The notes beneath the pieces were generated by a model. The model was not told the DNA's origin. It made no database searches and saw only the letters and a program-made list of their open reading frames with translations. Below, one piece after another: positions 34,489 through 55,558 of a DNA stretch of 55,558 nt (positions within the stretch are counted from its first letter, which is position 1; each line of letters opens with the position of its first letter). The stretch covers positions 1 to 55,558 of the forward strand of contig JBDRAM010000132.1 in the NCBI GenBank assembly GCA_043823785.1, read 5' to 3'. The translations under genes were made by a program, and so were the position numbers. Origin of the DNA: Candidatus Omnitrophota bacterium (GTDB taxonomy: Bacteria > Omnitrophota > Gorgyraeia > JABMRG01).

Positions 34489-34969
34489 GCTGGCGTGGCT
34501 TCCTCCTTCGCACTTACTACTGGTTTGCAACTGTAGTGCTACGGAGGACGGGACGCCACGCCGTAAAAGATGAAGCGAGCTGGCGTGGCTTAAATGAGCA
34601 CATAACTTAGCGAGCAAAGCGAAGCTAAGTTATAAGTGCGAATTTATCCTGAGGACACAAAGTGTCCGAAGGATCTTTGATAGGTGCCTGTAATAACAAT
34701 TGATAACTAGAGACACTTCGGTTGCTAAAATGCTCCCAAGGGTTGCATTTTTGACGCAACCTCAGTGTCAAATTTGCACACAAATTTGAGCTGGCGTGGC
34801 TTCCTCCTTCGCACTTACTGCTGGTTTGCAACTGTAGTGCTGCGGCGGACGGGACGCCACGCCGTAAAAGATGAAGCGAGCTGGCGTGGCTTCCTCCTTC
34901 GCACTTACTACTGGTTTGCAACTGTAGTGCTGCGGAGGACGGGACGCCACGCCGTAAAAGATGAAGCGA
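34489..34969 (+). repeat. 90-bp tandem array; each unit starts with nt 1-12 of tRNA-Thr
   Basis: Full units lie at 34489-34578, 34790-34879 and 34880-34969, with 1-3 substitutions between copies. A bare 12-mer GCTGGCGTGGCT lies at 34579-34590. The array is interrupted by a 199-bp insert and runs straight into the intact tRNA at 34970. Confidence 0.9.
34591..34789 (+). other. 199-bp hairpin-rich insert inside the tandem array
   Basis: It is flanked on both sides by the 12-mer GCTGGCGTGGCT. It contains hairpins at 34598-34639 (ATAACTTAGC/GCTAAGTTAT), 34646-34674 (ATCCT-GA-GGACAC-AAA-GTGTCC-GA-AGGAT) and GGTTGC/GCAACC, plus twin palindromes CAAATTTG. Confidence 0.7.
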
Positions 34970-35044
34970 GCTGGCGTGGCTCAACGGTAGAGCAGCGCAT
35001 TCGTAATGCGCAGGTTGGTGGTTCGATTCCACTCGCCAGCTCCA
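34970..35044 (+). tRNA. tRNA-Thr (CGT)
   Basis: 75-nt cloverleaf: acceptor GCTGGCG/CGCCAGC, D arm GCTC-AACGGTA-GAGC, anticodon arm GCGCA-TTCGTAA-TGCGC, variable AGGTT, T arm GGTGG-TTCGATT-CCACT, discriminator T and an encoded CCA. Confidence 0.9.
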
Positions 35045-36594: not shown

Positions 36595-37935
36595 ATGAGT
36601 AAAAAGACTTTTAAGGGAGGCATACACCCCCTTTATTTTAAGGAGTTGAGCAAGGCTTCACCCATACGCAGGCTAAACCCTCCGTCTGAAGTTGCCATAC
36701 CTTTGATCCAGCACACCGGAGCTCCCTGCCTTCCAAAAGTAAATAAAGGAGATGAAGTAAAGGCAGGGACTTGTATAGGTGAAAGCGATAAGTTTATATC
36801 ATCTCCCATACATTCTTCATTATCCGGCAAAGTCAAAACCATAAAGAGAGTACCGCACCCGGTATTAGGCAGTTGCGATGCCGTAGTAATAGAATCTGAT
36901 GGAAAAGATGAGAAAGAGAGCAGCTTAAATGGGTCATTGAAGGATGCGGAACAATTAAGCGCTGATGAGATAATCAGGTTTGTAAAAGACGCAGGTATAG
37001 TGGGTTTAGGCGGTGCTGCTTTTCCTACCCATGTGAAACTTAAGCCTCCCGCGGAGAAGAGCATAGACACCTTTATATTAAATGGCGCGGAATGTGAACC
37101 GTATCTTACGTGCGATGAAAGGGTCATGATAGAGAAGCCGGATGAGGTTATAAAGGGCGCGGTTCTTATGATGAAGGCGTTGGGTTTAAAAAGGGGCATA
37201 ATAGCTATAGAAGATAACAAGCCCGAAGCTATAAAGGCTATACGTAAAGCCCTAAACGACATACGACATGCGAAATGCGATATGCGAACCGTAGTTTTGC
37301 ATACAAAATATCCTCAAGGAGGAGAGAAGCAACTCATAAAAGCTCTCCTTAATAGAGAGGTTCCCCATGGCGGACTGCCATTTGATGTTGGCTGCATAGT
37401 AGATAATATACAGACAGCATATGCGGTATATGAAGCAATATACCAGGGAAAGCCTTTATATGAGAGAGTTATTACTGTCACAGGGGACGCTGTCAGCAAT
37501 CCATCCAATCTTTTGGTAAGAATAGGCACCCCGCTCTCTTACATTATAGATAACTGCGGTGGATTTAAAAGTGATCCATCCAAGATTATAATGGGAGGGC
37601 CGATGATGGGGTTGGCGCAGTTTAGCAATGATACCCCGGTTATAAAGGGCACTTCAGGCGTGCTTATATTAAGTGAAAAACAGGCGCGGCAGAGAATGTC
37701 GCAATATTGCATAAGGTGCGGAAAATGTATTGAGGCCTGCCCCCTGAACCTCGTGCCTACGGATATAGCAAGGGCTGCCGAATATGAAAATTTTGATATG
37801 GCAAATGAACTTTATGCCAAAGACTGCATGGAGTGCGGCGCGTGCGCATATTCCTGCCCCTCAAATATAGAATTAGTGCAGTTGATTAAACACGCGAAAA
37901 ACATCCTATTAAGGAGAGAAAGGAAGGATGTTTGA
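36595..37935 (+). CDS. rnfC: Rnf electron-transport complex subunit C
   Basis: Start set at ATG 36595, preceded by GAGGGA. It has the N-terminus TFKGGIHP and two 4Fe-4S motifs, CIRCGKCIEACP and CMECGACAYSCP. It heads an rnfCDGEAB gene order. Confidence 0.9.
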   Translation: MSKKTFKGGIHPLYFKELSKASPIRRLNPPSEVAIPLIQHTGAPCLPKVNKGDEVKAGTCIGESDKFISSPIHSSLSGKVKTIKRVPHPVLGSCDAVVIESDGKDEKESSLNGSLKDAEQLSADEIIRFVKDAGIVGLGGAAFPTHVKLKPPAEKSIDTFILNGAECEPYLTCDERVMIEKPDEVIKGAVLMMKALGLKRGIIAIEDNKPEAIKAIRKALNDIRHAKCDMRTVVLHTKYPQGGEKQLIKALLNREVPHGGLPFDVGCIVDNIQTAYAVYEAIYQGKPLYERVITVTGDAVSNPSNLLVRIGTPLSYIIDNCGGFKSDPSKIIMGGPMMGLAQFSNDTPVIKGTSGVLILSEKQARQRMSQYCIRCGKCIEACPLNLVPTDIARAAEYENFDMANELYAKDCMECGACAYSCPSNIELVQLIKHAKNILLRRERKDV

Positions 37936-37940
37936 TTCCA

Positions 37941-38333
37941 ATGATTAAAAAAAAGATTACAGAGATTAAAGAAAGAGATTCTTTGACTGAAAAAATAATA
38001 GGCTGTTCCTATAAAGTGCATAGCGAGCTAGGGCCAGGTTTTAATGAAGGCATATATCACAATGCTTTAAAGATAGTATTGCAAGAGCAAGGGTTAAAAT
38101 ACCAAAGCGAAAAAAGTTTTGATGTTAGGTATCAAGACAAAGATGTCGGTAGGTTTAGAGTAGATTTAATTATAGAAAACAATGTTATAGTCGAGGTAAA
38201 GGCAATAGCAGGGAATATGCCTATTGTATTTGAAAAGCAGGTCTTGTCATATCTGAAAGCATCAGGATATAAGACAGGACTCTTAATAAATTTTGGTAAT
38301 AAAAGTTGTCAAGTAAGGAGATTAATGTTTTAA
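37941..38333 (+). CDS. GxxExxY protein (PD-(D/E)XK nuclease-fold, PDDEXK_3-like)
   Basis: About 130 aa. It has the eponymous motif GFNEGIY, then D...VEVK (RVDLIIENNVIVEVKA) and a C-terminal GLLINFG. It is inserted between rnfC and rnfD. Confidence 0.8.
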   Translation: MIKKKITEIKERDSLTEKIIGCSYKVHSELGPGFNEGIYHNALKIVLQEQGLKYQSEKSFDVRYQDKDVGRFRVDLIIENNVIVEVKAIAGNMPIVFEKQVLSYLKASGYKTGLLINFGNKSCQVRRLMF

Positions 38334-38398
38334 TCTCAGTAATCTAAATTAATCTGTGTAATCAGGTATAATTTTTAATTATGCTTAATAATTATACC
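38331..38398 (+). repeat. AATCT/GTAATC box module, copy A (two boxes plus hairpin)
   Basis: TAATCTCAGTAATCTAAATTAATCTGTGTAATCA is followed directly by the hairpin GGTATAATT(38365-38373)/AATTATACC(38390-38398). The box part is near-identical to copy B. Confidence 0.85.
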
Positions 38399-38412
38399 AG
38401 GAGTATAATAAG

Positions 38413-39357
38413 ATGACAGATCTAATGCAGGTGAGCTCATCGCCACATATACATTCAGGTAAGTCTGTGAAAAGAATAATGTGGGCTGTATTTTTGGCCC
38501 TGGTACCATCTGGCGCATGGGGCGTATACTGCTATGGCCTAAGCGCGCTTTATATTATTATCGCCTCTGTTATCACATGCGTGCTGACCGAAGCCTTGAT
38601 ATTAAAACTAAGAAAAAGGCCCGTTACCATAATTGACGGAAGCGCGGCTCTTACAGGGCTTCTCTTGGCTTATAATGTATCTCCGATTGTTCCCGTATGG
38701 ATGGTATGCGTAGGCGCTGTCTTTGCTATTGCTGTTGTAAAACAGGCATTCGGCGGATTGGGCAGGAATATATTTAACCCCGCATTGGCAGGCAGGGCAT
38801 TTCTTATGGCATCATGGACCAGATATATGGTTGCTTTCAAGAACCCGCGCTGGCAGATAGACGCGGTAACCTCCGCAACGCCGCTTGATATTATTAAACA
38901 TAATTTTGAATATCCTATTCCTTCCTATCTCGATCTTTTTATAGGAAATAGAGGGGGCTGTATAGGCGAGGTATGTATAGCAGCGCTTCTGGTAGGGGCC
39001 TGTTTTCTTTTGTATAAAAAATATATAAAGTGGCATATACCATTTATATATGTAGGCACCGTAGGCTTATTAAGCTGGGCTTTTACGGGAGAGGGATTAT
39101 TCGCTGGTGACTGGCTATTTCAGATTCTAAGCGGAGGCTTAGTGTTGGGGGCCTTCTTTATGGCCACAGACTATGTGACTTCTCCTGTAACCAAAAAGGG
39201 TAAGATAATATTTGCTATACTTTGCGGCGTGATCACTTTTTCCATAAGGAAGTGGGGAGGATACCCGGAAGGTGTAAGTTATTCTATATTGATAATGAAT
39301 GCGGCCGTACCTATTATCGACAGGCATACAAAGCCGAAAAGGTTTGGAGGTAGATGA
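38413..39357 (+). CDS. rnfD: Rnf complex subunit D
   Basis: 314 aa polytopic membrane protein with family blocks SSPHIHS, GGLGRNIFNPAL and MATDYVTSP. Confidence 0.9.
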   Translation: MTDLMQVSSSPHIHSGKSVKRIMWAVFLALVPSGAWGVYCYGLSALYIIIASVITCVLTEALILKLRKRPVTIIDGSAALTGLLLAYNVSPIVPVWMVCVGAVFAIAVVKQAFGGLGRNIFNPALAGRAFLMASWTRYMVAFKNPRWQIDAVTSATPLDIIKHNFEYPIPSYLDLFIGNRGGCIGEVCIAALLVGACFLLYKKYIKWHIPFIYVGTVGLLSWAFTGEGLFAGDWLFQILSGGLVLGAFFMATDYVTSPVTKKGKIIFAILCGVITFSIRKWGGYPEGVSYSILIMNAAVPIIDRHTKPKRFGGR

Positions 39358-39358
39358 T

Positions 39359-39886
39359 ATGACAAGATTTGTAATTGTCCTTACGCTTGTATGTGTTGTA
39401 GCCGCGCTGGTTTTAGGTTTAACTTATAATGTTACAAAACCTTTAATCGCGGCTCAGGAAGAGAAAACAAAGAAAGAGGCGCTTGCAAGGGTTTTGCCTG
39501 GAGCAAATGATTATAGGCAGAAGATGCTGGATGAAAAAGAATATTATGAAGGATATAAAGGTGGTGAATTTATAGGTTATGCTATCTATGCCTTAGGCAA
39601 AGGTTATGCCGGCGATATAAATATGCTCGTCGGAATAGATAAGGATGGCAGGATATTAGGGGTTGAAATATTGTCGCAGCAGGAGACCCCTGGCCTGGGC
39701 GCGCGATGCGTCGAGAATAAGCGCGGCGAAGAGGAGCCCTGGTTTTTAAAGCAATTTAACGGAAAGGAAGCATCAGGCTTGAGCTTAAAGAGTGTGGAAG
39801 TAATAACGGGAGCGACCATAACTACAGACTCTATTGTAAAGGCTATCAAGAAGGAAGCAGAGGTCTTTTTAGAAAACATTAAGTAG
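39359..39886 (+). CDS. rnfG: Rnf complex subunit G (FMN-binding)
   Basis: Start set at ATG 39359 (MTRFVIVLTL signal-anchor). FMN_bind-type C-terminus ITGATITTDSIV. Confidence 0.85.
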   Translation: MTRFVIVLTLVCVVAALVLGLTYNVTKPLIAAQEEKTKKEALARVLPGANDYRQKMLDEKEYYEGYKGGEFIGYAIYALGKGYAGDINMLVGIDKDGRILGVEILSQQETPGLGARCVENKRGEEEPWFLKQFNGKEASGLSLKSVEVITGATITTDSIVKAIKKEAEVFLENIK

Positions 39887-39945
39887 TAGGAGCCGCCTCC
39901 CCCGGACCATTCGCTTTGCTCAGGTACGGGGCAAGCCGGCGGCGG
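39885..39945 (+). repeat. GC-rich stop-abutting palindromic element (TAGTAGGAGC family), copy 1, with a nested hairpin
   Basis: AGTAGGAGCCGCCTCCC starts inside the rnfG stop codon. The outer stem is GCCGCC(39892-97)/GGCGGC(39938-43). The nested hairpin is CCCCGGACC/GGTACGGGG with the loop ATTCGCTTTGCTCA. Confidence 0.8.
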
Positions 39946-39957
39946 ATAATATAATTT

Positions 39958-40548
39958 ATGAAAAGCTTATTTGGTGAATTTAGGAAAGGTATTATATCGG
40001 AGAATCCCATATTCGGTTTGCTGCTGGGGCTCTGTCCCGCGCTTGCGGTCTCATCGAGCGTAAGAGACGGCATCGGCATGGGGCTGGCCGCTACTTTTGT
40101 GTTATGCTGTTCAAATATTATTATATCGAGCATACGCAATTTTATACCGGACAAGATACGCATCCCCTGTTATATAGTAATAATAGCGGCATTTGTTACA
40201 ATAGTTGAGCTTTTACTTAAGGCATACCTGCCGGCTTTAAGCAGATCGCTGGGTATTTATGTCCCATTAATAGTTGTAAACTGCATAATACTCGGAAGGG
40301 CTGAAGCCTTCGCGTCAAAAAACAACATATTGAAATCACTGTTTGACGGCATCGGCATGGGGTGTGGGTTTACGCTGGCCCTTGTAATTATTTCAGCTAT
40401 AAGAGAACTTTTGGGAGCGGGTAAGGTCTTTGGATTCGCGCTATCACAGAATTTTCAACCTGCTGCCATAATGATATTGGCACCCGGCGCCCTGCTGACG
40501 CTAGGGCTGTTAATAGGCCTGTTAAATTGGTTAAAAGAAGAAAAATAA
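39958..40548 (+). CDS. rnfE: Rnf complex subunit E
   Basis: 196 aa. RnfA/E-family blocks NPIFGLLLGLCPALAV and VPLIVVNCIILGRAE. Confidence 0.9.
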   Translation: MKSLFGEFRKGIISENPIFGLLLGLCPALAVSSSVRDGIGMGLAATFVLCCSNIIISSIRNFIPDKIRIPCYIVIIAAFVTIVELLLKAYLPALSRSLGIYVPLIVVNCIILGRAEAFASKNNILKSLFDGIGMGCGFTLALVIISAIRELLGAGKVFGFALSQNFQPAAIMILAPGALLTLGLLIGLLNWLKEEK

Positions 40549-40552
40549 AATT

Positions 40553-40577
40553 CGCCGCCGGGAGGCGGCTCCTACTG
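40553..40577 (-). repeat. GC-rich palindromic element, copy 2 (inverted, minimal form)
   Basis: CGCCGCCGGGAGGCGGCTCCTACTG is the reverse complement of copy 1 without the nested hairpin. It forms the hairpin GCCGCC-GGGA-GGCGGC. Confidence 0.8.
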
Positions 40578-40621
40578 CAGGTTAAAAGAATATGGCAAAT
40601 AAAATAATGATAAAATCGAAA

Positions 40622-40663
40622 CCCTGCACCCTGCAACCTACATGCTACAAGCTACAGGCTATA
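40622..40663 (+). repeat. Six tandem heptamers NNCTRCA
   Basis: CCCTGCA CCCTGCA ACCTACA TGCTACA AGCTACA GGCTATA ends 2 nt before the rnfA ATG. Confidence 0.8.
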
Positions 40664-40665
40664 AT

Positions 40666-41274
40666 ATGAACTTCTCTGAATTCATGACAATAGTAATAAG
40701 CGCGATATTTATTCACAATTTTATTCTCGCGCGGTTTCTCGGATTATGTCCTTTCATAGGCGTCTCAAAGCAGACAAAGTCAGCTTTGGGCATGGGTGCC
40801 GCTGTAATATTTGTCATGAGCTTATCCGCGCTGATAACATGGTTCGTATATAGATTTTTACTTATTCCTTTTAATTTAGAATATCTTAGAACAGTTTCAT
40901 TTATCCTGGTCATAGCCGTGTTTGTGCAGTTTGTCGAGATGGCTATAGCGAAGATAGCGCCGCCTCTTCATAGGGCCATGGGTATATATATACCTTTGAT
41001 CACAACAAACTGCGCTGTTCTTGGCGTGACGGTTCTTAATATAAATATGTTTTTTAAAGGCAAGGAAGCAGCGGCCTTTTCTCTCGGGACTTCCATGATA
41101 CAGGCATTTTGCGCAGGCATAGGTTTTTCCCTGGCCATGTTCTTGATGTCAGGGATAAGAGAGAGGCTTGAGTTAACAGATATACCAAAGTCTTTTGTGG
41201 GCGTGCCGATAGCTTTTATTGTGGCATCTTTGATGTCTATGGCGTTTTTAGGTTTTAGCGGGTTTAAGTTTTAG
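40666..41274 (+). CDS. rnfA: Rnf complex subunit A
   Basis: Start set at ATG 40666 (alignment by eye with the E. coli RnfA N-terminus). Blocks FLGLCPFIGVSK and IPLITTNCAVLGV. Confidence 0.9.
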   Translation: MNFSEFMTIVISAIFIHNFILARFLGLCPFIGVSKQTKSALGMGAAVIFVMSLSALITWFVYRFLLIPFNLEYLRTVSFILVIAVFVQFVEMAIAKIAPPLHRAMGIYIPLITTNCAVLGVTVLNINMFFKGKEAAAFSLGTSMIQAFCAGIGFSLAMFLMSGIRERLELTDIPKSFVGVPIAFIVASLMSMAFLGFSGFKF

Positions 41275-41381
41275 GTTAGCGGGTGCTCCAGTTGGCGGGT
41301 TAGCGTGTCGACCCGTCAACCCGTAAACTCGCTAACAGGCTAACTATAGACAGTAACACCTGTAAGAAAGCAGTACAAACT

Positions 41382-42191
41382 ATGCACATACTTTTACCGG
41401 TTATTATATTAGGCTCATTAGGAGCTATCTTTGGCATATGGCTTACATTTGCCCAGAAGATATTTTTTGTCGAAAAGGATCCACGCGTCGAACATATATT
41501 TTCTCTTTTGCCAGGAGTTAATTGCGGCGCATGCGGAAAAGCCGGATGTTTTGGCCTGGCAGAGGCATTGGGCAGGGGTGAAGTCGAGTCTATAAATTGC
41601 CCTGTGGCAGATAGCTCTGTCAGAAAACTCATTTCAGAGGCAGCGGGCATTAAGCTTGATGAAAGCTCAAATCAGATAGCTGCTTTAATATGTAACGGCG
41701 GCGGCGAATGTAAAGATAAGTTTAAATATAACGGCCCGAAGGATTGCAATATAGCGAATCTTATCTTTGGCGGGCATAAGGCATGTAATTTTGCCTGTAT
41801 AGGTTTCGGGAGCTGCGTCAAGGCCTGCCCTTTTGATGCGATAAATATGGGTGAAGACGGCCTGCCTATCATAGATTCTGAAAAATGTACTGCTTGCGGA
41901 AAATGCGTCAAGGCCTGCCCTAAGGATGTGCTGGTTCTTGTGCCCAAAACAAGCCAATACCACATACAATGCAATTCAAAAGATAAAGCAGCTGAATTTA
42001 TAAAGGCCTGCAAGGCGGGCTGTATAGCCTGCGGAAAATGCGTAAAGATATGCCCGGTATCCGCGATAAGCATAACCGAGAACCTTGCTTTAATAGATTA
42101 TATAAAATGCACAAATTGCGGTGAGTGTGTAAAAGTATGCCCTACTAAGGCGATAACAAAAGCAGCGATAATTGAGGATCGGGTCAGGTAG
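41382..42191 (+). CDS. rnfB: Rnf complex subunit B (polyferredoxin)
   Basis: 269 aa. It has an N-terminal TM helix, CGACGKAGC, and several CxxCxxCxxxCP 4Fe-4S motifs. Confidence 0.85.
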   Translation: MHILLPVIILGSLGAIFGIWLTFAQKIFFVEKDPRVEHIFSLLPGVNCGACGKAGCFGLAEALGRGEVESINCPVADSSVRKLISEAAGIKLDESSNQIAALICNGGGECKDKFKYNGPKDCNIANLIFGGHKACNFACIGFGSCVKACPFDAINMGEDGLPIIDSEKCTACGKCVKACPKDVLVLVPKTSQYHIQCNSKDKAAEFIKACKAGCIACGKCVKICPVSAISITENLALIDYIKCTNCGECVKVCPTKAITKAAIIEDRVR

Positions 42192-42336
42192 ATTAGGTTA
42201 GGGTCAGGATGCCAGTTTGGAAAATTAGGTAAAGTAGTTGGTATTTTCCCTGACCACCTAACCTAGCTACCATACCGGCTTCTTGACCTTTACCCAACAA
42301 CCTAACCAGGTACGTTAACATGGAGGTGATTAAAAT

Positions 42337-42669
42337 ATGTCAAAGAACATAATTGAAGTTACTGAGCCTGCATTTGACAGCGAAGTAAGGAATGTAAAGG
42401 GCGTGGTGCTTGTTGATTTCTGGGCCTCATGGTGCGCGCCATGCAACATGCTTGCGCCTGTGCTGGAAAGGATAGCTGATAGTTTAAGTGGTGAGCTTAA
42501 GTTCTGCAAGCTAAACGTCGATGACAATCCAAGCATAGCTTCTGAGTTTGGCGTCATGAGCATACCTACTCTTATAATATTCAAGGACGGAAAAGAGCAG
42601 GGCAGGATGACAGGTTTTCCCGGAGAGGGCGAGCTTACGAAAAAAATAAAGGAATATCTTGCAGTATAG
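42337..42669 (+). CDS. trxA: Thioredoxin
   Basis: 110 aa. The active site is VDFWASWCAPCNM (WCAPC instead of the canonical WCGPC). Strong SD GGAGGTGA upstream. Confidence 0.9.
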   Translation: MSKNIIEVTEPAFDSEVRNVKGVVLVDFWASWCAPCNMLAPVLERIADSLSGELKFCKLNVDDNPSIASEFGVMSIPTLIIFKDGKEQGRMTGFPGEGELTKKIKEYLAV

Positions 42670-42724
42670 GAAAGTATAAACTTAGATACTGCAAGGAACC
42701 AGTCAGGTTAGAGGTTCATGGAGG

Positions 42725-43930
42725 GTGTTTGGTTTCTTGACTAAATATATCTTATTAATTGATATAGGGACTACAACGATATCAGGCGCTATTTTTGATA
42801 AAGAAAAAGGGCGCGTACTATCCTCAGATTTTATTTTAAATGAGCAGATAAGATATGGAGATGACGTTATATCAAGAATAGATCATGCTCTTAGGAAAAT
42901 CGCGAACGCGGCATCTCTCCAGAGAGCAGTAGTCTTATCTATAAATAAGTTGTCCGGGAAGCTTTTTTCGCAGGCTAAAAAAAGTCACAAAGACATCGGT
43001 TCGGCCTTCTGCGTATGCAATACCGCCATACACCATCTTTTTTTAGGAATAGATACGGCCCCGCTTATTACCCCGCCATACAAGCCGTCTCAAAAATCAG
43101 AGATCACTATATATGCTGACAGAATAGGCCTTAAGCTTGAGAAAGATTGCCCGGTGACTCTACTGCCTAACGTAGAAGGTTTTGTAGGCTCTGACGCTCT
43201 TGCGGTTATTATAGCAAGCGGTATCTATAAATCAAGAGCAGTAAAGCTGGCCATAGACATGGGAACAAACGGTGAAGTAGTCTTGGGAAGCGCGGGGAGA
43301 ATATTTGCAGCGTCTGCCGCGGCAGGGCCCGCGTTTGAGGGAAGGCATATAAGCTGCGGCATGCCGGCTATAAAAGGGGCGATAAAATCAATAGAGATGA
43401 AAGGCGGCTCTTTTAAAATCGATGTTATAGGAGGAGGAGCCCCTAAGGGAATATGCGGCAGCGCCTTGATAGACGCGGCTTCATGTATGCTTAAAAATGG
43501 GTTGATGAACAGCTCAGGCAGGATGAATGAGCCTGAATTTGTATTTTATAAAAAAGGAAGAACCAAGATTTCGGTGACGCAACAGGATATAAGAAAGCTG
43601 CAGCTTGCCAAGGCCGCTATATACGCCGCGGTAAAAATACTTTTAAGAAAATCACGCATAAGCAAAGAAGAGATAACCGAGGTACTCTTTACAGGCTCTT
43701 TTGGCAGCGTAGTGAACACTGATAGCATAGCGGCAATAGGGCTTGTGCCTAAAATAGATAAGAGAAGAATAAGATTCCTTGAAAAAGGCGCGCTTGAAGG
43801 GCTTAAGATTTATGCAGGCAGTCTGTCTTTACAGAAAAAGATCACATCTATATTAAGCAGCATAAAACATATACCGCTTCTTGGCAAGGGTTTTAGCGAA
43901 GAGTTTACCTCGTCTATGTTTTTGGGGTGA
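42725..43930 (+). CDS. ASKHA-fold DUF4445 protein (RACo C-terminal-domain-like), lacking the Fe-S N-terminal domain
   Basis: 401 aa; the GTG start is uncertain. Blocks LLIDIGTTTISGAIFD, AIDMGTNGEVVLG and AAGPAFEGRHISCGM are as I recall for corrinoid-activase-type ASKHA domains. Confidence 0.6.
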   Translation: MFGFLTKYILLIDIGTTTISGAIFDKEKGRVLSSDFILNEQIRYGDDVISRIDHALRKIANAASLQRAVVLSINKLSGKLFSQAKKSHKDIGSAFCVCNTAIHHLFLGIDTAPLITPPYKPSQKSEITIYADRIGLKLEKDCPVTLLPNVEGFVGSDALAVIIASGIYKSRAVKLAIDMGTNGEVVLGSAGRIFAASAAAGPAFEGRHISCGMPAIKGAIKSIEMKGGSFKIDVIGGGAPKGICGSALIDAASCMLKNGLMNSSGRMNEPEFVFYKKGRTKISVTQQDIRKLQLAKAAIYAAVKILLRKSRISKEEITEVLFTGSFGSVVNTDSIAAIGLVPKIDKRRIRFLEKGALEGLKIYAGSLSLQKKITSILSSIKHIPLLGKGFSEEFTSSMFLG

Positions 43931-43936
43931 TCTTAG

Positions 43937-44007
43937 AATCTCTGTAATCTAAATTAATCTTTGTAATCAAGAGATTGTCCTGTGTTTTCATTTTTGAGAC
44001 AATCTCT
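43937..44007 (+). repeat. AATCT/GTAATC box module, copy B
   Basis: AATCTCTGTAATCTAAATTAATCTTTGTAATCA is followed by the hairpin AGAGATTGTC(43970-79)/GACAATCTCT(43998-44007). Confidence 0.85.
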
Positions 44008-44017
44008 CTATTTATAG

Positions 44018-44046
44018 TTGACATGCCGCAGCCCGGGTGCTAAACT
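44018..44046 (+). promoter_or_regulatory. Sigma70-type promoter upstream of purN
   Basis: TTGACA (44018-23), a 17-nt spacer and TAAACT (44041-46). The -35 lies exactly 10 nt after the module-B hairpin. Confidence 0.6.
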
Positions 44047-44052
44047 TAAAAT

Positions 44053-44180
44053 TAGGGGCAGAATAAAGTATGAACCCCGTACCTCAAGTATAAACAGAGG
44101 TTAAGGGTTAAAATATCTAAAATCAGCAGCGTAGTGGTTATACATAGCCTACTTTTTCTTTAATGTAGAGGTACGGGGTG
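44053..44180 (+). promoter_or_regulatory. Structured purN leader with SD/start-codon sequestering helix
   Basis: ACCCCGTACCTC (44074-85) is perfectly complementary to GAGGTACGGGGT (44168-79), which covers the SD GAGG and 2 nt of the GTG start. GGGG at 44055-58 could compete for the CCCC. Confidence 0.45.
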
Positions 44181-45323
44181 AATATAGCAGTTTTATGTTC
44201 GGGCAATGGCTCTAATTTTCAGGCTATAGTAGATGCTAAAAAAAAAGGTATTTTCAAGCCTGAAATCGCCCTTATGGTCTGTGACAATCCGGATGCTTAC
44301 GCTGTAAAGAGAGCGGAAAAAGAAGGCATAAAGACATTTATAGCGGAGAGAAAAAATTTTCCATCCAAGATTGAATTTGAGCAAAGCATTATAGCCAAGC
44401 TCAAGGAACATGACATAGGGCTTATTTGCCTTGCGGGGTATATGAGGCTTCTCTCCGGCGATTTTATAGCAAAGTATAAAAATAAGATATTAAATATACA
44501 CCCCGCGCTTTTGCCGTCTTTTAAAGGCGCGCACGCTATAAAGGATGCCCTGGATCATGGCGTAAAGATAACAGGCGTTACCGTGCATTTTGTAACAGAG
44601 GATATGGACGCGGGCCCAATAATATTGCAGGAGCCTGTAAATGTCCAGGAGAACGATACGGAGGATACGCTGGCTGATAGAATACATAAAGTAGAGCATA
44701 GGCTTTATCCTGAAGCTATTAAGCTCTTTACCGGCAAAAGGCTCAGCACCATAGGAAGAAAAATAAAGATCCTGGCTGCTGTAACCATATTCTTATCTGT
44801 TTTCAGCTTTGAATCAAAAGCCATGTATGGCAGCGATTTAATTTTTTCTCCTGTTCTTACTAAGGTTACGGTACCTGTCTATTTAAAGGAAGAACTAAGG
44901 CCTATCACGGGCCTTGACATAAAAGCATTAAAAGAAAAAGACGTTATAAAAAAGCCCGTTGCGCAAGACCCAAAAATATATAATAAATTAGAGCTTCTTT
45001 CCTTTAAGCTATATGATATAGAAGAGATCATATATTCTGATTCAGGCAGTTCTAAATCATATGATCCCAGCATAGACGCGGAGCAGCTTATTACAAAAGA
45101 AGAGATAGAGAATATGCGGATAAAGAGCTCAGTGAAGGCCGCGCATACGCTTGCTGAGGTAATGGATTCGGTGAATTTTAAATTAGCGTACAGCGGCATA
45201 AATAATCTGGTTGAGACGGCAAAGAATCTGATAAAGTTCAGGGAGTATGTAGGAGAAAAATACCACCTCCACTTTAAAGTAGATAAGGACGAGGCACTTT
45301 TTAGGTACAAGAAGCGTTTTTAA
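44178..45323 (+). CDS. purN: Phosphoribosylglycinamide formyltransferase with a ~180-aa C-terminal extension
   Basis: 381 aa with a GTG start. The PurN domain spans aa 1-198 (VLCSGNGSNFQAI, NIHPALLPSFKG, TVHFVTEDMDAGPII). It is followed in frame by a signal/anchor-like segment RKIKILAAVTIFLSVFSFESKA and an uncharacterised domain. Confidence 0.8.
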   Translation: MNIAVLCSGNGSNFQAIVDAKKKGIFKPEIALMVCDNPDAYAVKRAEKEGIKTFIAERKNFPSKIEFEQSIIAKLKEHDIGLICLAGYMRLLSGDFIAKYKNKILNIHPALLPSFKGAHAIKDALDHGVKITGVTVHFVTEDMDAGPIILQEPVNVQENDTEDTLADRIHKVEHRLYPEAIKLFTGKRLSTIGRKIKILAAVTIFLSVFSFESKAMYGSDLIFSPVLTKVTVPVYLKEELRPITGLDIKALKEKDVIKKPVAQDPKIYNKLELLSFKLYDIEEIIYSDSGSSKSYDPSIDAEQLITKEEIENMRIKSSVKAAHTLAEVMDSVNFKLAYSGINNLVETAKNLIKFREYVGEKYHLHFKVDKDEALFRYKKRF

Positions 45324-45337
45324 TCCCCCCTAATATT

Positions 45338-46774
45338 ATGACAAAAATAAAATTCGGAACATCAGGATGGCGTGCTGTTATTAGCGATGAGTTTACCTTT
45401 GAAAATGTAAGGCTGGTCACTCAAGCTATATCTGACTATATAAAGAAAGTTTATAGTCTACAGTCTATAGTTTATAGAAAAAGACGAAAAACTAAAACTG
45501 TTGTTGTTGGATATGATACTAGGTTTTTGTCGAAGGAGTTTGCGCAGGAGGCGGCAAAGGTCTTATCTTCTAACGGGATAAAGGTCTTATTGTCTGACCG
45601 GGATGTCCCCACTCCTGTTATATCCTATCATATTATAAAGAAGAAGTGCGCTGGCGGAATAAACTTTACCGCAAGCCACAACCCGCCTCAGTACAATGGT
45701 ATAAAATTTTCTCCCGAAACAGGCGGGCCAGCCCAGCCTGAGGTAACCAAGGCCATAGAGAGGAATATAGAAAAACTTCAAAAGAAAAAGTCTATGCCAG
45801 GCTACACCGCGAAGGAATCCCTTATAACTGTTTTCAACCCCCGTCCCGCTTATCTAAGGCAGATAGAGAGATTAATAGATTTTAAGGCTATAAAAAAAGC
45901 CAAGCTTAAAGTAGCTGTTGATTGCCTCTACGGTACATCGCGTGGTTATCTGGACCTTATTCTTAGAAAGTACGGCTATAAGCCTATTGTGCTGCATGAC
46001 TATCTTAATCCGTATTTTGACGGTAAGCGCCCGGAACCTGCGCCTGAGAATATACTGGAGCTCATCTCTCTGGTCAAGAAGAAAAGGTTAGACCTGGGGC
46101 TTTCAGCTGACGGAGATGCGGACCGTTTTGGAATAATAGATTCAGACGGAACATATATTACCCCGAATCAGGTGGTCACGCTCTTGTTCTATCATCTATT
46201 AAGCACAAGAAAAAAGTCAAAACATGTGGTAGCCCGCACTGTCGCGACTACACATATGATAGACGCTATAGCAAAAGCCTACAATATAGAGGTCATAGAG
46301 ACCCCTGTAGGTTTTAAGTATTTTGTGGATATTATCAATAAGGGAGACTGTGTTATTGCCGGAGAAGAGTCTGGCGGGCTTTCTATGTCAGGCCATCTTC
46401 CGGAGAAAGACGGGATACTGGCCTGCCTCCTTATTACGGAGATGGTCGCAAAGCGTAAAAAACCCATAAGGGAGATACTGAAGCATTTATATGATATCTA
46501 CGGAAGGTTCTATACGCATAGGATAGATTTTAATCTTACGCAATCCGCGAAAGAAAGATTGATGAAAAAGGTGAGGTCCCCGAAATTCAGTTCTTTTTCG
46601 GGAATAAAGATATATAGACGCGATTTTAAGGATGGATGTAAGTTTTATACGAAAGACGGAAGCTGGGTATTATTCAGGCCCTCCGGTACAGAACCCATCG
46701 TAAGGGTATATTTTGAGTCAAACTCAAAGAAAATCCTCGCCCGGCTCATAGAGGCTGGAGAAAAACTCATATGA
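45338..46774 (+). CDS. Phosphoglucomutase/phosphomannomutase family protein
   Basis: 478 aa. Active-site TASHNPPQYNGIKF, metal loop GLSADGDADRFGIID and sugar loop GEESGG. Confidence 0.9.
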   Translation: MTKIKFGTSGWRAVISDEFTFENVRLVTQAISDYIKKVYSLQSIVYRKRRKTKTVVVGYDTRFLSKEFAQEAAKVLSSNGIKVLLSDRDVPTPVISYHIIKKKCAGGINFTASHNPPQYNGIKFSPETGGPAQPEVTKAIERNIEKLQKKKSMPGYTAKESLITVFNPRPAYLRQIERLIDFKAIKKAKLKVAVDCLYGTSRGYLDLILRKYGYKPIVLHDYLNPYFDGKRPEPAPENILELISLVKKKRLDLGLSADGDADRFGIIDSDGTYITPNQVVTLLFYHLLSTRKKSKHVVARTVATTHMIDAIAKAYNIEVIETPVGFKYFVDIINKGDCVIAGEESGGLSMSGHLPEKDGILACLLITEMVAKRKKPIREILKHLYDIYGRFYTHRIDFNLTQSAKERLMKKVRSPKFSSFSGIKIYRRDFKDGCKFYTKDGSWVLFRPSGTEPIVRVYFESNSKKILARLIEAGEKLI

Positions 46775-46783
46775 TAACATGCG

Positions 46784-48189
<1,406 letters not shown>

Positions 48190-48904: not shown

Positions 48905-48980
48905 GAATTAGAACTTAAGCATTGATGTTTGACATGCAACATACGACGCGGGGTGGAGCAGCCCGGTAGCTCGCAAGGCT

Positions 48981-49621
48981 CAATGGATACAAAGCTCAAA
49001 GCGGATATTGCAGAATCGTCTGTAGTAACTGAACTTCTAAAAAGAGGATTCAGTGTGCTAAGACCTGTTGGAGATCGGCTTTCTTATGATATAGGGATCG
49101 ATCTTAAGGGCAAATTTGTCCGTATTCAGGTCAAGAGCGCTTGGTTCAACGAAAGAGATAAATGCTACGTTGTAGATGCACGTAGAACCAAGACAAACAG
49201 ACGGCGCATGATCAGAAAGCGTTATAAGGCTGATGATTTCGATTTTGCAATTATCCATATAGCTGACTTAAATGTGTTCTATGTTATGCCTCTGACAGTA
49301 TTTTCTAATTATAGAAGCACTGTTACGCTAATAGAATCAAGCAAAAGGCAACGAAAACCTAAGTCAGCATGCTACAGAGAGCGATGGGATTTATTGTCCA
49401 AGGGCCCATTATCCGGTAACGGGTAATGAAAACCTGTCAAATTCGGTGAAACCCTCGATATAAAAATCAGGGCAATACCGAGCCAAGTCCGCACAGGCGG
49501 AAAGGTGTAGAGACTAGTTGGCAGGAATCCTAAGACATTAGGATTATGGTATAGTCCAGACTACGAACATGCGGTACTTTTATGCGCAGTGCAGCATGGC
49601 AGTGAAAACTGTAGTAGTAAG
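48981..49621 (+). mobile_element. Group I intron (IC3-like core) with a homing-endonuclease ORF
   Basis: The 5' exon ends in U and the intron ends in G. The core at 49430-49621 contains CCTGTCAAATTCGGTGAAACC, CCGAGCCAAG, GAAAGGTGTAGAGACTAG and CCTAAG, closely like the Azoarcus tRNA-Ile intron as I recall it. P3 is CCTGTC/GGCAGG and P7 is GACTA/TAGTC. Confidence 0.85.
48983..49426 (+). CDS. PD-(D/E)XK homing endonuclease (I-Ssp6803I-like)
   Basis: 147 aa from ATG 48983 (the track ORF 48929 reads through the tRNA exon). The block AESSVVTELLKRGFSVLRPVGDRLSYDIGIDLKGKFVRIQVKS gives a D...D...QVK nuclease core. It lies inside the tRNA-Met intron. Confidence 0.8.
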   Translation: MDTKLKADIAESSVVTELLKRGFSVLRPVGDRLSYDIGIDLKGKFVRIQVKSAWFNERDKCYVVDARRTKTNRRRMIRKRYKADDFDFAIIHIADLNVFYVMPLTVFSNYRSTVTLIESSKRQRKPKSACYRERWDLLSKGPLSGNG

Positions 49622-49674
49622 CATAACCTTGAGGTCAGAGGTTCAAATCCTCTCCCCGCTACCATTAGCGCTTC

Positions 49675-55312: not shown

Positions 55313-55453
55313 GTGGTATAACGAAGTATGAAACACCACTAAAAATCTATTAGAGGTTATAGCTAAGTGATTTTTTTGTTTGCTATTTACTAATTCTAAG
55401 CTATAATATAAGCATAACATATATAGGCTGTCGCGAAACTAATTTTAGCCTAT

Positions 55454-55549
55454 GATTACAATGATTTTTAAAAGATTACAGCGATTACCTAGTCGATAAA
55501 CAATCTCCGTAATCTGTCATTTAGTAATCTTTGTAATCAAGGGCGGCAC
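55454..55549. repeat. AATCT/GTAATC box module, copy D (inverted pair of box sets)
   Basis: Reverse-orientation boxes are GATTACAATGATT...GATTACAGCGATTAC (55454-55488). Forward boxes are AATCTCCGTAATCT...AATCTTTGTAATCA (55502-55539). Then AGGGCGGCAC is the presumed 5' hairpin arm, and the window ends. Confidence 0.75.
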
Positions 55550-55558
55550 TTTTGTGAC

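Follow-up and report, generated by a model that had tools for sequence, protein, structure and literature searches.

The question raised by a 55,558-nt stretch of DNA from a Candidatus Omnitrophota bacterium (contig JBDRAM010000132.1, positions 1 to 55,558, referred to as the window) is what a small module dispersed between its genes might be. Four intergenic loci, designated copies A to D, carry phased boxes of the form AATC-nnn-GTAATC next to a hairpin, and an original prediction made from the DNA letters had assigned this module a selected function at the DNA or RNA level. The unit is indeed selected; however, it is not a free-standing host signal but the end of a nuclease-gene cassette or of a derivative of one. 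The four copies are the ends of one family of small inserted elements, in which the complete unit consists of a hairpin, two reverse boxes, a GxxExxY gene or a spacer of about 15 nt, two forward boxes and a second hairpin. The best explanation, to which a probability of roughly 0.6 was assigned, is a selfish element resembling either the repetitive extragenic palindrome (REP) doublets, or REPINs, and their REP-associated tyrosine transposases (RAYTs), or miniature inverted-repeat transposable elements (MITEs), present as a nuclease cassette and as gene-less and half derivatives.

The whole window was scanned with the pattern AATCTNNGTAATC, allowing at most one mismatch, and compared with 100 dinucleotide-preserving shuffles. 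Eleven boxes were found, against 1.67 +/- 1.43 in the shuffles, none of which reached 11, while the bare hexamer GTAATC was not enriched in the window (27 versus 24.7 expected). In copies A-C, two boxes lie 19-20 nt apart, start to start, and are followed by one A and then by a hairpin whose stem pairs perfectly over 9-10 bp and whose loop has 16-19 nt. Each element end comprises four AATC units spaced about 9, 10 and 9 nt, in agreement with the predicted recurrence of AATCT pentamers every 9-10 bp. The box regions of A and B differ at 2 positions, as the reported identity of 33 in 35 implied, and the upstream stop codons of A-C, said to be close by, precede the first box by 0, 6 and 10 nt. 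The single architecture proposed for all four loci holds for A-C in boxes, spacing and adjacent hairpin, but not for D, which is palindromic. Similarly, the combination of boxes and hairpin is real and enriched but is only part of the unit, the left hairpin and the reverse boxes of copy A having been overlooked.

A complete cassette is present in copy A (37899-38398), whose insertion point is precisely the overlapping junction of rnfC and rnfD. The left hairpin, reverse boxes, open reading frame (ORF), forward boxes and right hairpin follow one another in that order, which gives copy A the form of the complete unit. In four relatives with the syntenic arrangement MFS-rnfCDGEAB, rnfC overlaps rnfD by 13 nt or abuts it, and both hairpins are absent from these empty junctions. 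The window has about 500 extra nt, which begin with the left hairpin (first base at about 37900) and end where the right hairpin does (38398), so that both hairpins came with the cassette. Beyond it the host sequence resumes at AGGAGTATAA, equivalent to ACGGAGTATAC in L226 (loci outside the window are cited by L numbers). As a consequence of the insertion, rnfC reads through the left hairpin and stops at a TGA (37933-37935) in the outer left box, which also contains the ATG (37941) of the GxxExxY ORF; the same outer-box TGA ends nine other host ORFs in the metagenome set. Although degenerate, this box matches GATTACAATGATT of L146 and L148 in position and content, and hairpins homologous to the left hairpin of A, AGACATCC...GGATGTCT, are found at the left ends of other cassettes. 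The right hairpin lies directly 5' of the host Shine-Dalgarno (SD) sequence AGGAG (38399-38403), with the rnfD ATG at 38413.

The protein encoded by copy A matched TIGR04256 (E 2e-38) and PF13366 (PDDEXK_3, E 3e-36), and residues E36, D75, E85 and K87 were invariant in the GxxExxY alignment. The AlphaFold 2 model, with a predicted local distance difference test score (pLDDT) of 81, has a fold matching Cas4, lambda exonuclease, MGME1 and Hjc-type nucleases. A search of the PDB found no relative of the protein by sequence and only generic PD-(D/E)XK matches by fold, and the PADLOC defence models gave no matching family. The left boxes code for the first ten residues of the ORF, which are disordered in the model. 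The window is part of a bacterial chromosome, and the closest relatives of both RnfD and the GxxExxY protein are from Omnitrophota, with 73-79% identity.

Copies B and C consist of the right half of the unit, and strong TTGACA-17-TAnnnT promoters, those of purN and eno, respectively, follow them at a distance of about 50 nt. Synteny between L231 and the window extends from rnfC to the S1-domain gene, and the RACo-purN spacer of L231 measures 13 nt, compared with 247 nt in the window, where it holds copy B. The PGM-eno spacer of L231 has neither boxes nor hairpin, and copy C is missing from the corresponding spacers of both L231 and L232. The window, L231 and L232 share a conserved eno promoter, TTGACA-17-TATAAT-yCATTTCAy. 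The absence of B and C from L231 and the retention of the eno promoter without the module indicate that boxes and hairpin are one inserted unit and that the promoters following B and C belong to the host. A promoter as part of the module was rejected on the same grounds, and because promoters are rare after element ends elsewhere (9 of 271). The prediction that boxes and hairpin are selected as one unit was borne out, as they are absent together from syntenic relatives and the stems are kept paired by compensatory change.

Two further observations were made in these spacers. The PGM-eno spacer of L232 (L232:20320-20400) has a box-less hairpin, GCCCTA...TAGGGC, at the position of copy C, which may be a remnant or an unrelated host hairpin. 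The leader of purN in the window, about 130 nt long (44047-44180, + strand), follows a TTGACA/TAAACT promoter and contains CCCCGTACCTC (44075-44085), which can pair with GAGGTACGGGG (44168-44178). This pairing would cover the GTG start; the leader, for which the L231 spacer offers just 13 nt, had no Rfam match.

Copy D is gene-less and palindromic, a spacer of 15 nt standing where the gene would be, and is best read as a derivative produced by internal deletion. It is 78-80% identical to L085 and L065 over 106-142 nt, and in both of these loci the D-type right hairpin is complete, AGGGCGGCACTTTTGTGACGCCCT, with a TTTT loop. A search of Rfam 15 over 37500-47200 gave no match to the module at the gathering score or at E<=1. 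The features of the four copies are collected in Table 1.

Table 1. Features of copies A to D, with positions in the window.
Copy	Feature	Position	Strand	Sequence or remark
A	Left flanking hairpin	37899..37933	+	AAACATCCT / AGGATGTTT; 9 bp, 17-nt loop; RNAfold
A	Outer left box, degenerate	37934..37946	-	GATTCCAATGATT
A	GxxExxY gene (cargo)	37941..38333	+	130 aa, PD-(D/E)XK nuclease; PF13366, TIGR04256
A	Inner left box	37955..37967	-	GATTACAGAGATT; codes for ...KITEIK... of the ORF
A	Inner right box	38332..38344	+	AATCTCAGTAATC; overlaps ORF stop TAA
A	Outer right box	38351..38363	+	AATCTGTGTAATC
A	Right flanking hairpin	38365..38398	+	GGTATAATT / AATTATACC; covariance-model match, 47.2 bits
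B	Two forward boxes	43937-43949, 43956-43968	+	Right-half element, no left boxes
B	Flanking hairpin	43970..44007	+	AGAGATTGTC / GACAATCTCT; 18-nt loop
C	Two forward boxes	46785-46797, 46805-46817	+	Right-half element
C	Flanking hairpin	46819..46857	+	GAGGTTGCTG / CAGCAACCTC; 19-nt loop
D	Left flanking hairpin	55423..55453	+	ATAGGCT / AGCCTAT; conserved in L085
D	Two reverse boxes	55454-55466, 55474-55486	-	Box scan
D	Two forward boxes	55502-55514, 55526-55538	+	Box scan; 11 nt apart
D	Right flanking hairpin, GC-rich, 5' part only	55540..55558	+	AGGGCGGCACTTTTGTGAC...; reaches window end

A lack of further copies, or their random scatter inside genes, had been named as a refutation of the original prediction, and this refutation failed. 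A survey based on the boxes, which took one genome per species and called a locus where two boxes lay 4-9 nt apart, returned at least 119 more loci, situated at gene boundaries, in about 20 phylum-level lineages that include Omnitrophota, Planctomycetota, Desulfobacterota, Elusimicrobiota, Bacteroidota, Nitrospirota, Chloroflexota and Bacillota. Among the box loci listed, the commonest map was < -21- < -28- > -21- > (reverse boxes to the left, forward boxes to the right), the gene-less palindromic form. One locus of Gemmatimonadales (L011:4241-7000) has about nine box-bounded units in series, with centres of 128-142 nt, and looks like a tandem gene-less array.

A second survey started from the protein, the best 80 metagenome loci being picked by similarity to the GxxExxY protein of the window alone. 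Left reverse boxes were present at 60 of the 80, right forward boxes at 54 and both at 51. The gene is always exactly central in the palindromic arrangement of boxes, and it is the sole recognisable cargo between them, no other cargo gene having been recognised in the box loci. The flanks share a common order. On the 5' side, the stop codon of the upstream host gene is followed by a hairpin, two reverse boxes and the ORF; on the 3' side, the ORF stop lies in or next to the first forward box and is followed by the second forward box, an A and the hairpin, after which come AGGAGG and the start codon of the following host gene. Several of the GxxExxY copies are pseudogenes, either frameshifted or internally deleted, and centres of 130-180 nt in L066 still encode the C-terminal GxxExxY motif. 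These remnants are the reason why the gene-less copies are best read as internal-deletion derivatives.

The insertions respect the organisation of the host operons. Among 52 cassettes with boxes on both sides, the end of an upstream host gene on the same strand fell within -15 to +32 nt of the first box in 39 of the 42 that could be assessed, and in 32 of 47 a downstream gene on the same strand had its start 1-46 nt beyond the last box. None of 40 cassettes examined adjoined rRNA. An association with phages was rejected; viral contigs have few canonical copies and most of their matches are tandem arrays of a 9-mer.

More distant GxxExxY relatives without the boxes carry other inverted phased repeats, namely AATCGGTGAAATC, 8-mers of the form (ACGAAARC)n or 9-mers of the form (CACAGAGRA)n, and protein subfamily and type of flanking repeat go together. 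This suggests that inverted phased repeats around the gene are a general property of the PF13366 family. The loci concerned are L210, L213, L214, L216-L218, L220, L223-L225, L194, L197, L199, L202 and L212, where the repeats are arrays of the 8-mer ACGAAARC / GYTTTCGT, arrays of the 9-mer CACAGAGRA / TYCTCTGTG, or AATCGGTGAAATC boxes.

Many matches to the box pattern proved to be contiguous 9-mer arrays, (GTAATCTGY)n, some of them arranged as inverted blocks around 60-400 nt (L009, L015, L017, L021, L036, L041, L044, L066, L068, L070, L075, L102, L104, L110, L114 and L115; in viral contigs, L121-L145). In L066, GxxExxY remnants lie between 9-mer blocks, and the arrays in metagenome-assembled genomes (MAGs) of giant viruses may be unrelated coding repeats.

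The hairpins outside the boxes were analysed with a hairpin finder and a covariance model, which took the place of a fixed-register test of the arms that suffered from poor registration. A strict hairpin was defined by a stem of >=8 bp that contained <=1 internal mismatch and began 0-3 nt beyond the outer box. At 278 distinct element ends from other genomes, such a hairpin was found 77 times (about 28%), compared with rates of 3.4% for shuffled sequence and 3.8% for randomly chosen genomic positions, and the 77 stems had 70 distinct 5' arms. The covariance model, comprising box, hairpin and SD, recovered 41 right ends at E <= 2e-4. In the resulting alignment 91.9% of the cells were paired, changes on both sides had occurred in 7 of 8 pairs, and double changes were seen in 41 cells, compared with 8.5 +/- 2.3 in shuffles; when the structures were slid by 1-3 columns, 29-53% were paired.

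The original prediction had also noted that the stems of the copies differ completely and yet always pair. The pairing holds; the hairpins of A-D, however, belong to different subfamilies, each conserved in other genomes (that of A in L113, L022, L062 and L030, which share its right hairpin; that of D in L085 and L065), so the differences among the four are not by themselves compensatory evolution, which was seen within subfamilies. The hairpins of copy C and L113, for example, are homologous and differ by one compensatory exchange of T:A to C:G. In several Desulfobacterota the cassette lies between rpsK and rpsD, the 5' arm of its left hairpin is formed by the last rpsK codons (RRV*), and the 3' arm tracks synonymous changes in rpsK, AGACGCGTC/GACCGCGTCT in some and AGACGTGTG/CACACGTCT in others. 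That the hairpin pairs with host coding sequence where the site is fixed and inherited vertically suggests that the structure matters for expression in place and not for mobility alone. Termination, one of the functions considered originally, does not fit: an intrinsic terminator has a GC-rich stem, a short loop and a U tract, whereas the hairpins of A-C have loops of 16-19 nt with no T run following, and none was called as an intrinsic terminator.

The boxes behave differently. Positions 1-4 and 8-13 of the box are conserved, whereas variation at positions 5-7 is free and independent. The left and right boxes of 83 complete quartets were compared for identity in register and crossed; the in-register comparison was better in 15 quartets and the crossed one in 10 (p = 0.42), so there was no signal of left-right compensation, and box pairing maintained by compensation was rejected. 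In minimum-free-energy folds of two transcripts, that of copy A and that of the D-like L085 element, left boxes do pair with right boxes between the flanking hairpins. Despite these folds, the conserved sequence and the lack of left-right covariation point to sequence-specific recognition rather than a compensated stem. Of the functions originally listed, a protein-binding array or a recombination site would fit boxes that, by their sequence, are conserved, phased and arranged in inverted pairs.

Taken together, the element is a nuclease cassette bounded by repeats, which enters cistron junctions as a single unit and in the orientation of the upstream host gene. It decays into gene-less and half copies, has spread across phyla, and has ends specific to its protein and hairpins conserved in structure. 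In the proposed mechanism, the phased AATC-nnn-GTAATC boxes, with the four AATC units of each end facing the same side of the helix, would be protein recognition sites. By analogy with RAYTs acting on REPs and REPINs, or with transposases acting on their MITEs, the boxes are probably bound by the encoded nuclease, the most likely candidate for the recognising protein, which might cut or recombine at the ends or at gene-less centres and so spread the element. The nuclease gene would have no promoter of its own and would be expressed by read-through from the upstream host gene. The flanking stem-loops, selected for pairing only, would serve as insulators in the polycistronic mRNA, the left one capping the 3' end of the upstream cistron and the right one, directly 5' of the downstream SD sequence, stabilising or presenting it. 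Insulators of this kind are proposed to keep insertion at an operon junction tolerable to the host, and the hairpins probably do protect the expression of the flanking host genes.

Several observations weigh against the selfish-element reading, 1) copies B and C are half elements without a partner end, 2) to our knowledge, a lone PD-(D/E)XK domain of 130 aa is not a known transposase, 3) the single precise junction, GCGAAA/AACATCC ... TATACC/AGGAGT (a slash marks each border), shows no clear target-site duplication, 4) with a strict hairpin at about 28% of the ends, the hairpin is not obligatory, 5) the covariation figures lean towards the structure because the alignment was fitted to the model structure and 6) G:T and A:C mismatches in the hairpins, 9 and 5 respectively, are few in number and leave undecided whether the hairpins act as RNA or DNA.

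Three other explanations were considered. The gene might be a free-standing homing endonuclease that parasitises an older, independent palindromic repeat, the boxes being its target rather than terminal repeats; the repeat would spread by its own means or serve a function in the host, and cleavage of its centre by the nuclease, followed by repair, would copy the gene in. The exact central position of the gene would be explained, as would the excess of gene-less over gene-bearing copies among the box loci listed, and PD-(D/E)XK homing endonucleases exist, one of them apparently in a tRNA intron of this window. The explanation is nevertheless unlikely, since the decaying GxxExxY remnants in the centres argue that gene-less copies derive from gene-bearing ones, and copy A reached the empty rnfC/rnfD junction in one piece, ends included. 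That each protein subfamily has its own repeat type also speaks for a cassette with its own ends, though both models predict it.

The second alternative places the element at the RNA level, as an intervening sequence (IVS) whose left and right boxes form a stem cut by RNase III, so that the cassette is released and the flanking hairpins remain as protective ends. A precedent exists in Coxiella, whose IVS is described as an ORF that has inverted repeats at its borders and undergoes RNase III processing (PMC4990558); the cassettes share transcripts with host operons, and the predicted folds of copy A and the L085 element have the required stem. The free variation of positions 5-7 without compensation, the half elements lacking a partner, the absence of rRNA next to any of 40 loci and the tandem 9-mer variants, which cannot form such a stem locally, make this quite improbable. 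It is harder still to accept a host regulatory site, in which the phased boxes before the promoters of purN and eno would be bound by a transcription factor of the host and the hairpin would terminate or attenuate transcription of the upstream gene. The boxes are phased at one helical turn and B and C do lie about 50 nt upstream of strong promoters, but the eno promoter persists in relatives without the module, a promoter follows just 9 of 271 ends elsewhere, and copy A is inside an operon directly before an SD sequence. Moreover, the boxes flank the nuclease gene at 51 of 80 loci, the same 13-mer recurs across about 20 phyla, and the hairpins have no U tract and were not called as terminators.

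The putative endonuclease in the tRNA intron mentioned above belongs to a tRNA-Met (CAT) that ARAGORN calls when long introns are permitted (48947-49664, + strand) and that is split at position 35 by an intron of 641 nt. The 3' part of the intron matches the Rfam group I intron RF00028 (49381-49574), and an ORF in the intron (within 48929-49426) matches PF11645 (PDDEXK_5, E 5e-41) and looks like a homing endonuclease of the I-Ssp6803I type.

The selfish-element reading draws on several known systems. REPs and REPINs are associated with a RAYT transposase, the gene being flanked by inverted copies of the repeat while gene-less doublets are dispersed (PMC3116915, PMC3337134, PMC3733652). Here too a gene lies between inverted copies of a short motif (51 of 80 loci), gene-less inverted doublets occur between genes, protein subfamily tracks repeat type and copies are found at gene ends. 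Whereas RAYTs are HUH/Y1 proteins of the IS200/IS605-like type, this protein is a PD-(D/E)XK nuclease of PF13366/TIGR04256, and its gene is multi-copy, often decayed and horizontally spread rather than typically single-copy. REPs are imperfect palindromes of 20-40 nt with a GTAG/CGTC tag; the boxes, AATCnnnGTAATC, are non-palindromic phased direct repeats without a GTAG tag and have variable hairpins on their outer sides. MITEs and transposons with terminal inverted repeats share with the element such repeats, internal-deletion derivatives and insertion polymorphism relative to empty sites, and Tn7 and Mu ends likewise have multiple subterminal binding-site repeats. The element differs from MITEs and these transposons in that its sole ORF is a PD-(D/E)XK nuclease instead of a DDE, serine or tyrosine transposase, in that no target-site duplication was found at the one precise junction, and in its strong preference for cistron junctions in the orientation of the host operon.

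A 23S rRNA IVS carrying a small ORF, such as that of Coxiella burnetii (PMC4990558), is similar in being a small selfish ORF with inverted-repeat borders within a host transcript, tolerated because the flanking structure allows processing. The present element, in contrast, is found in protein-coding operons and not in 23S helices 25 or 45, its boxes show no stem covariation, and its ORF encodes a GxxExxY protein and not the four-helix bundle S23p. Free-standing homing endonucleases (phage seg/mob; the PD-(D/E)XK enzyme I-Ssp6803I) are also small promoterless nuclease genes between conserved co-oriented genes, but the cassette has its own repeated ends, gene-less copies and many unrelated junctions in one genome. 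What is known is the logic of repeat/transposase pairs; what differs is the protein class, the non-palindromic phased boxes, the targeting of junctions and the covarying, insulator-like hairpins. No description of the boxes, of the variant repeats or of their link to PF13366/TIGR04256 was found in the open-access literature. Tentatively, and with less than even confidence, PF13366 nucleases and their cognate phased-repeat ends could be an unrecognised class of bacterial mobile or selfish elements that insert at cistron junctions, keep operons working through hairpins conserved in structure only, and decay to gene-less palindromes.

PF13366/TIGR04256 is a very large family, the window member having more than 1000 close relatives, and its members are annotated just as 'GxxExxY protein'; the one survey naming it gives the function as unknown. 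If correct, the selfish-element reading would provide a function for this family. A repeat-bounded cassette with empty sites, deletion derivatives and specific ends leads to the testable claim that these nucleases act on their own flanking repeats. It would also explain intergenic repeats that occur across phyla in uncultured Omnitrophota, Planctomycetota, Elusimicrobiota and Desulfobacterota and that annotation pipelines currently turn into spurious peptides. Hairpins that evolve to pair even with host coding sequence may offer a natural 'operon insulator' for synthetic operons.

One other repeat was observed in the window, upstream of copy A. A 90-nt tandem repeat (34788-34981, + strand; 2.2 copies, 98% identical) extends into the 5' end of tRNA-Thr(CGT) (34970-35044), and no match to an Rfam family was obtained. 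A stretch of 57 nt just upstream (34589-34644) is 91% identical to L074, a locus in an Omnitrophota MAG.

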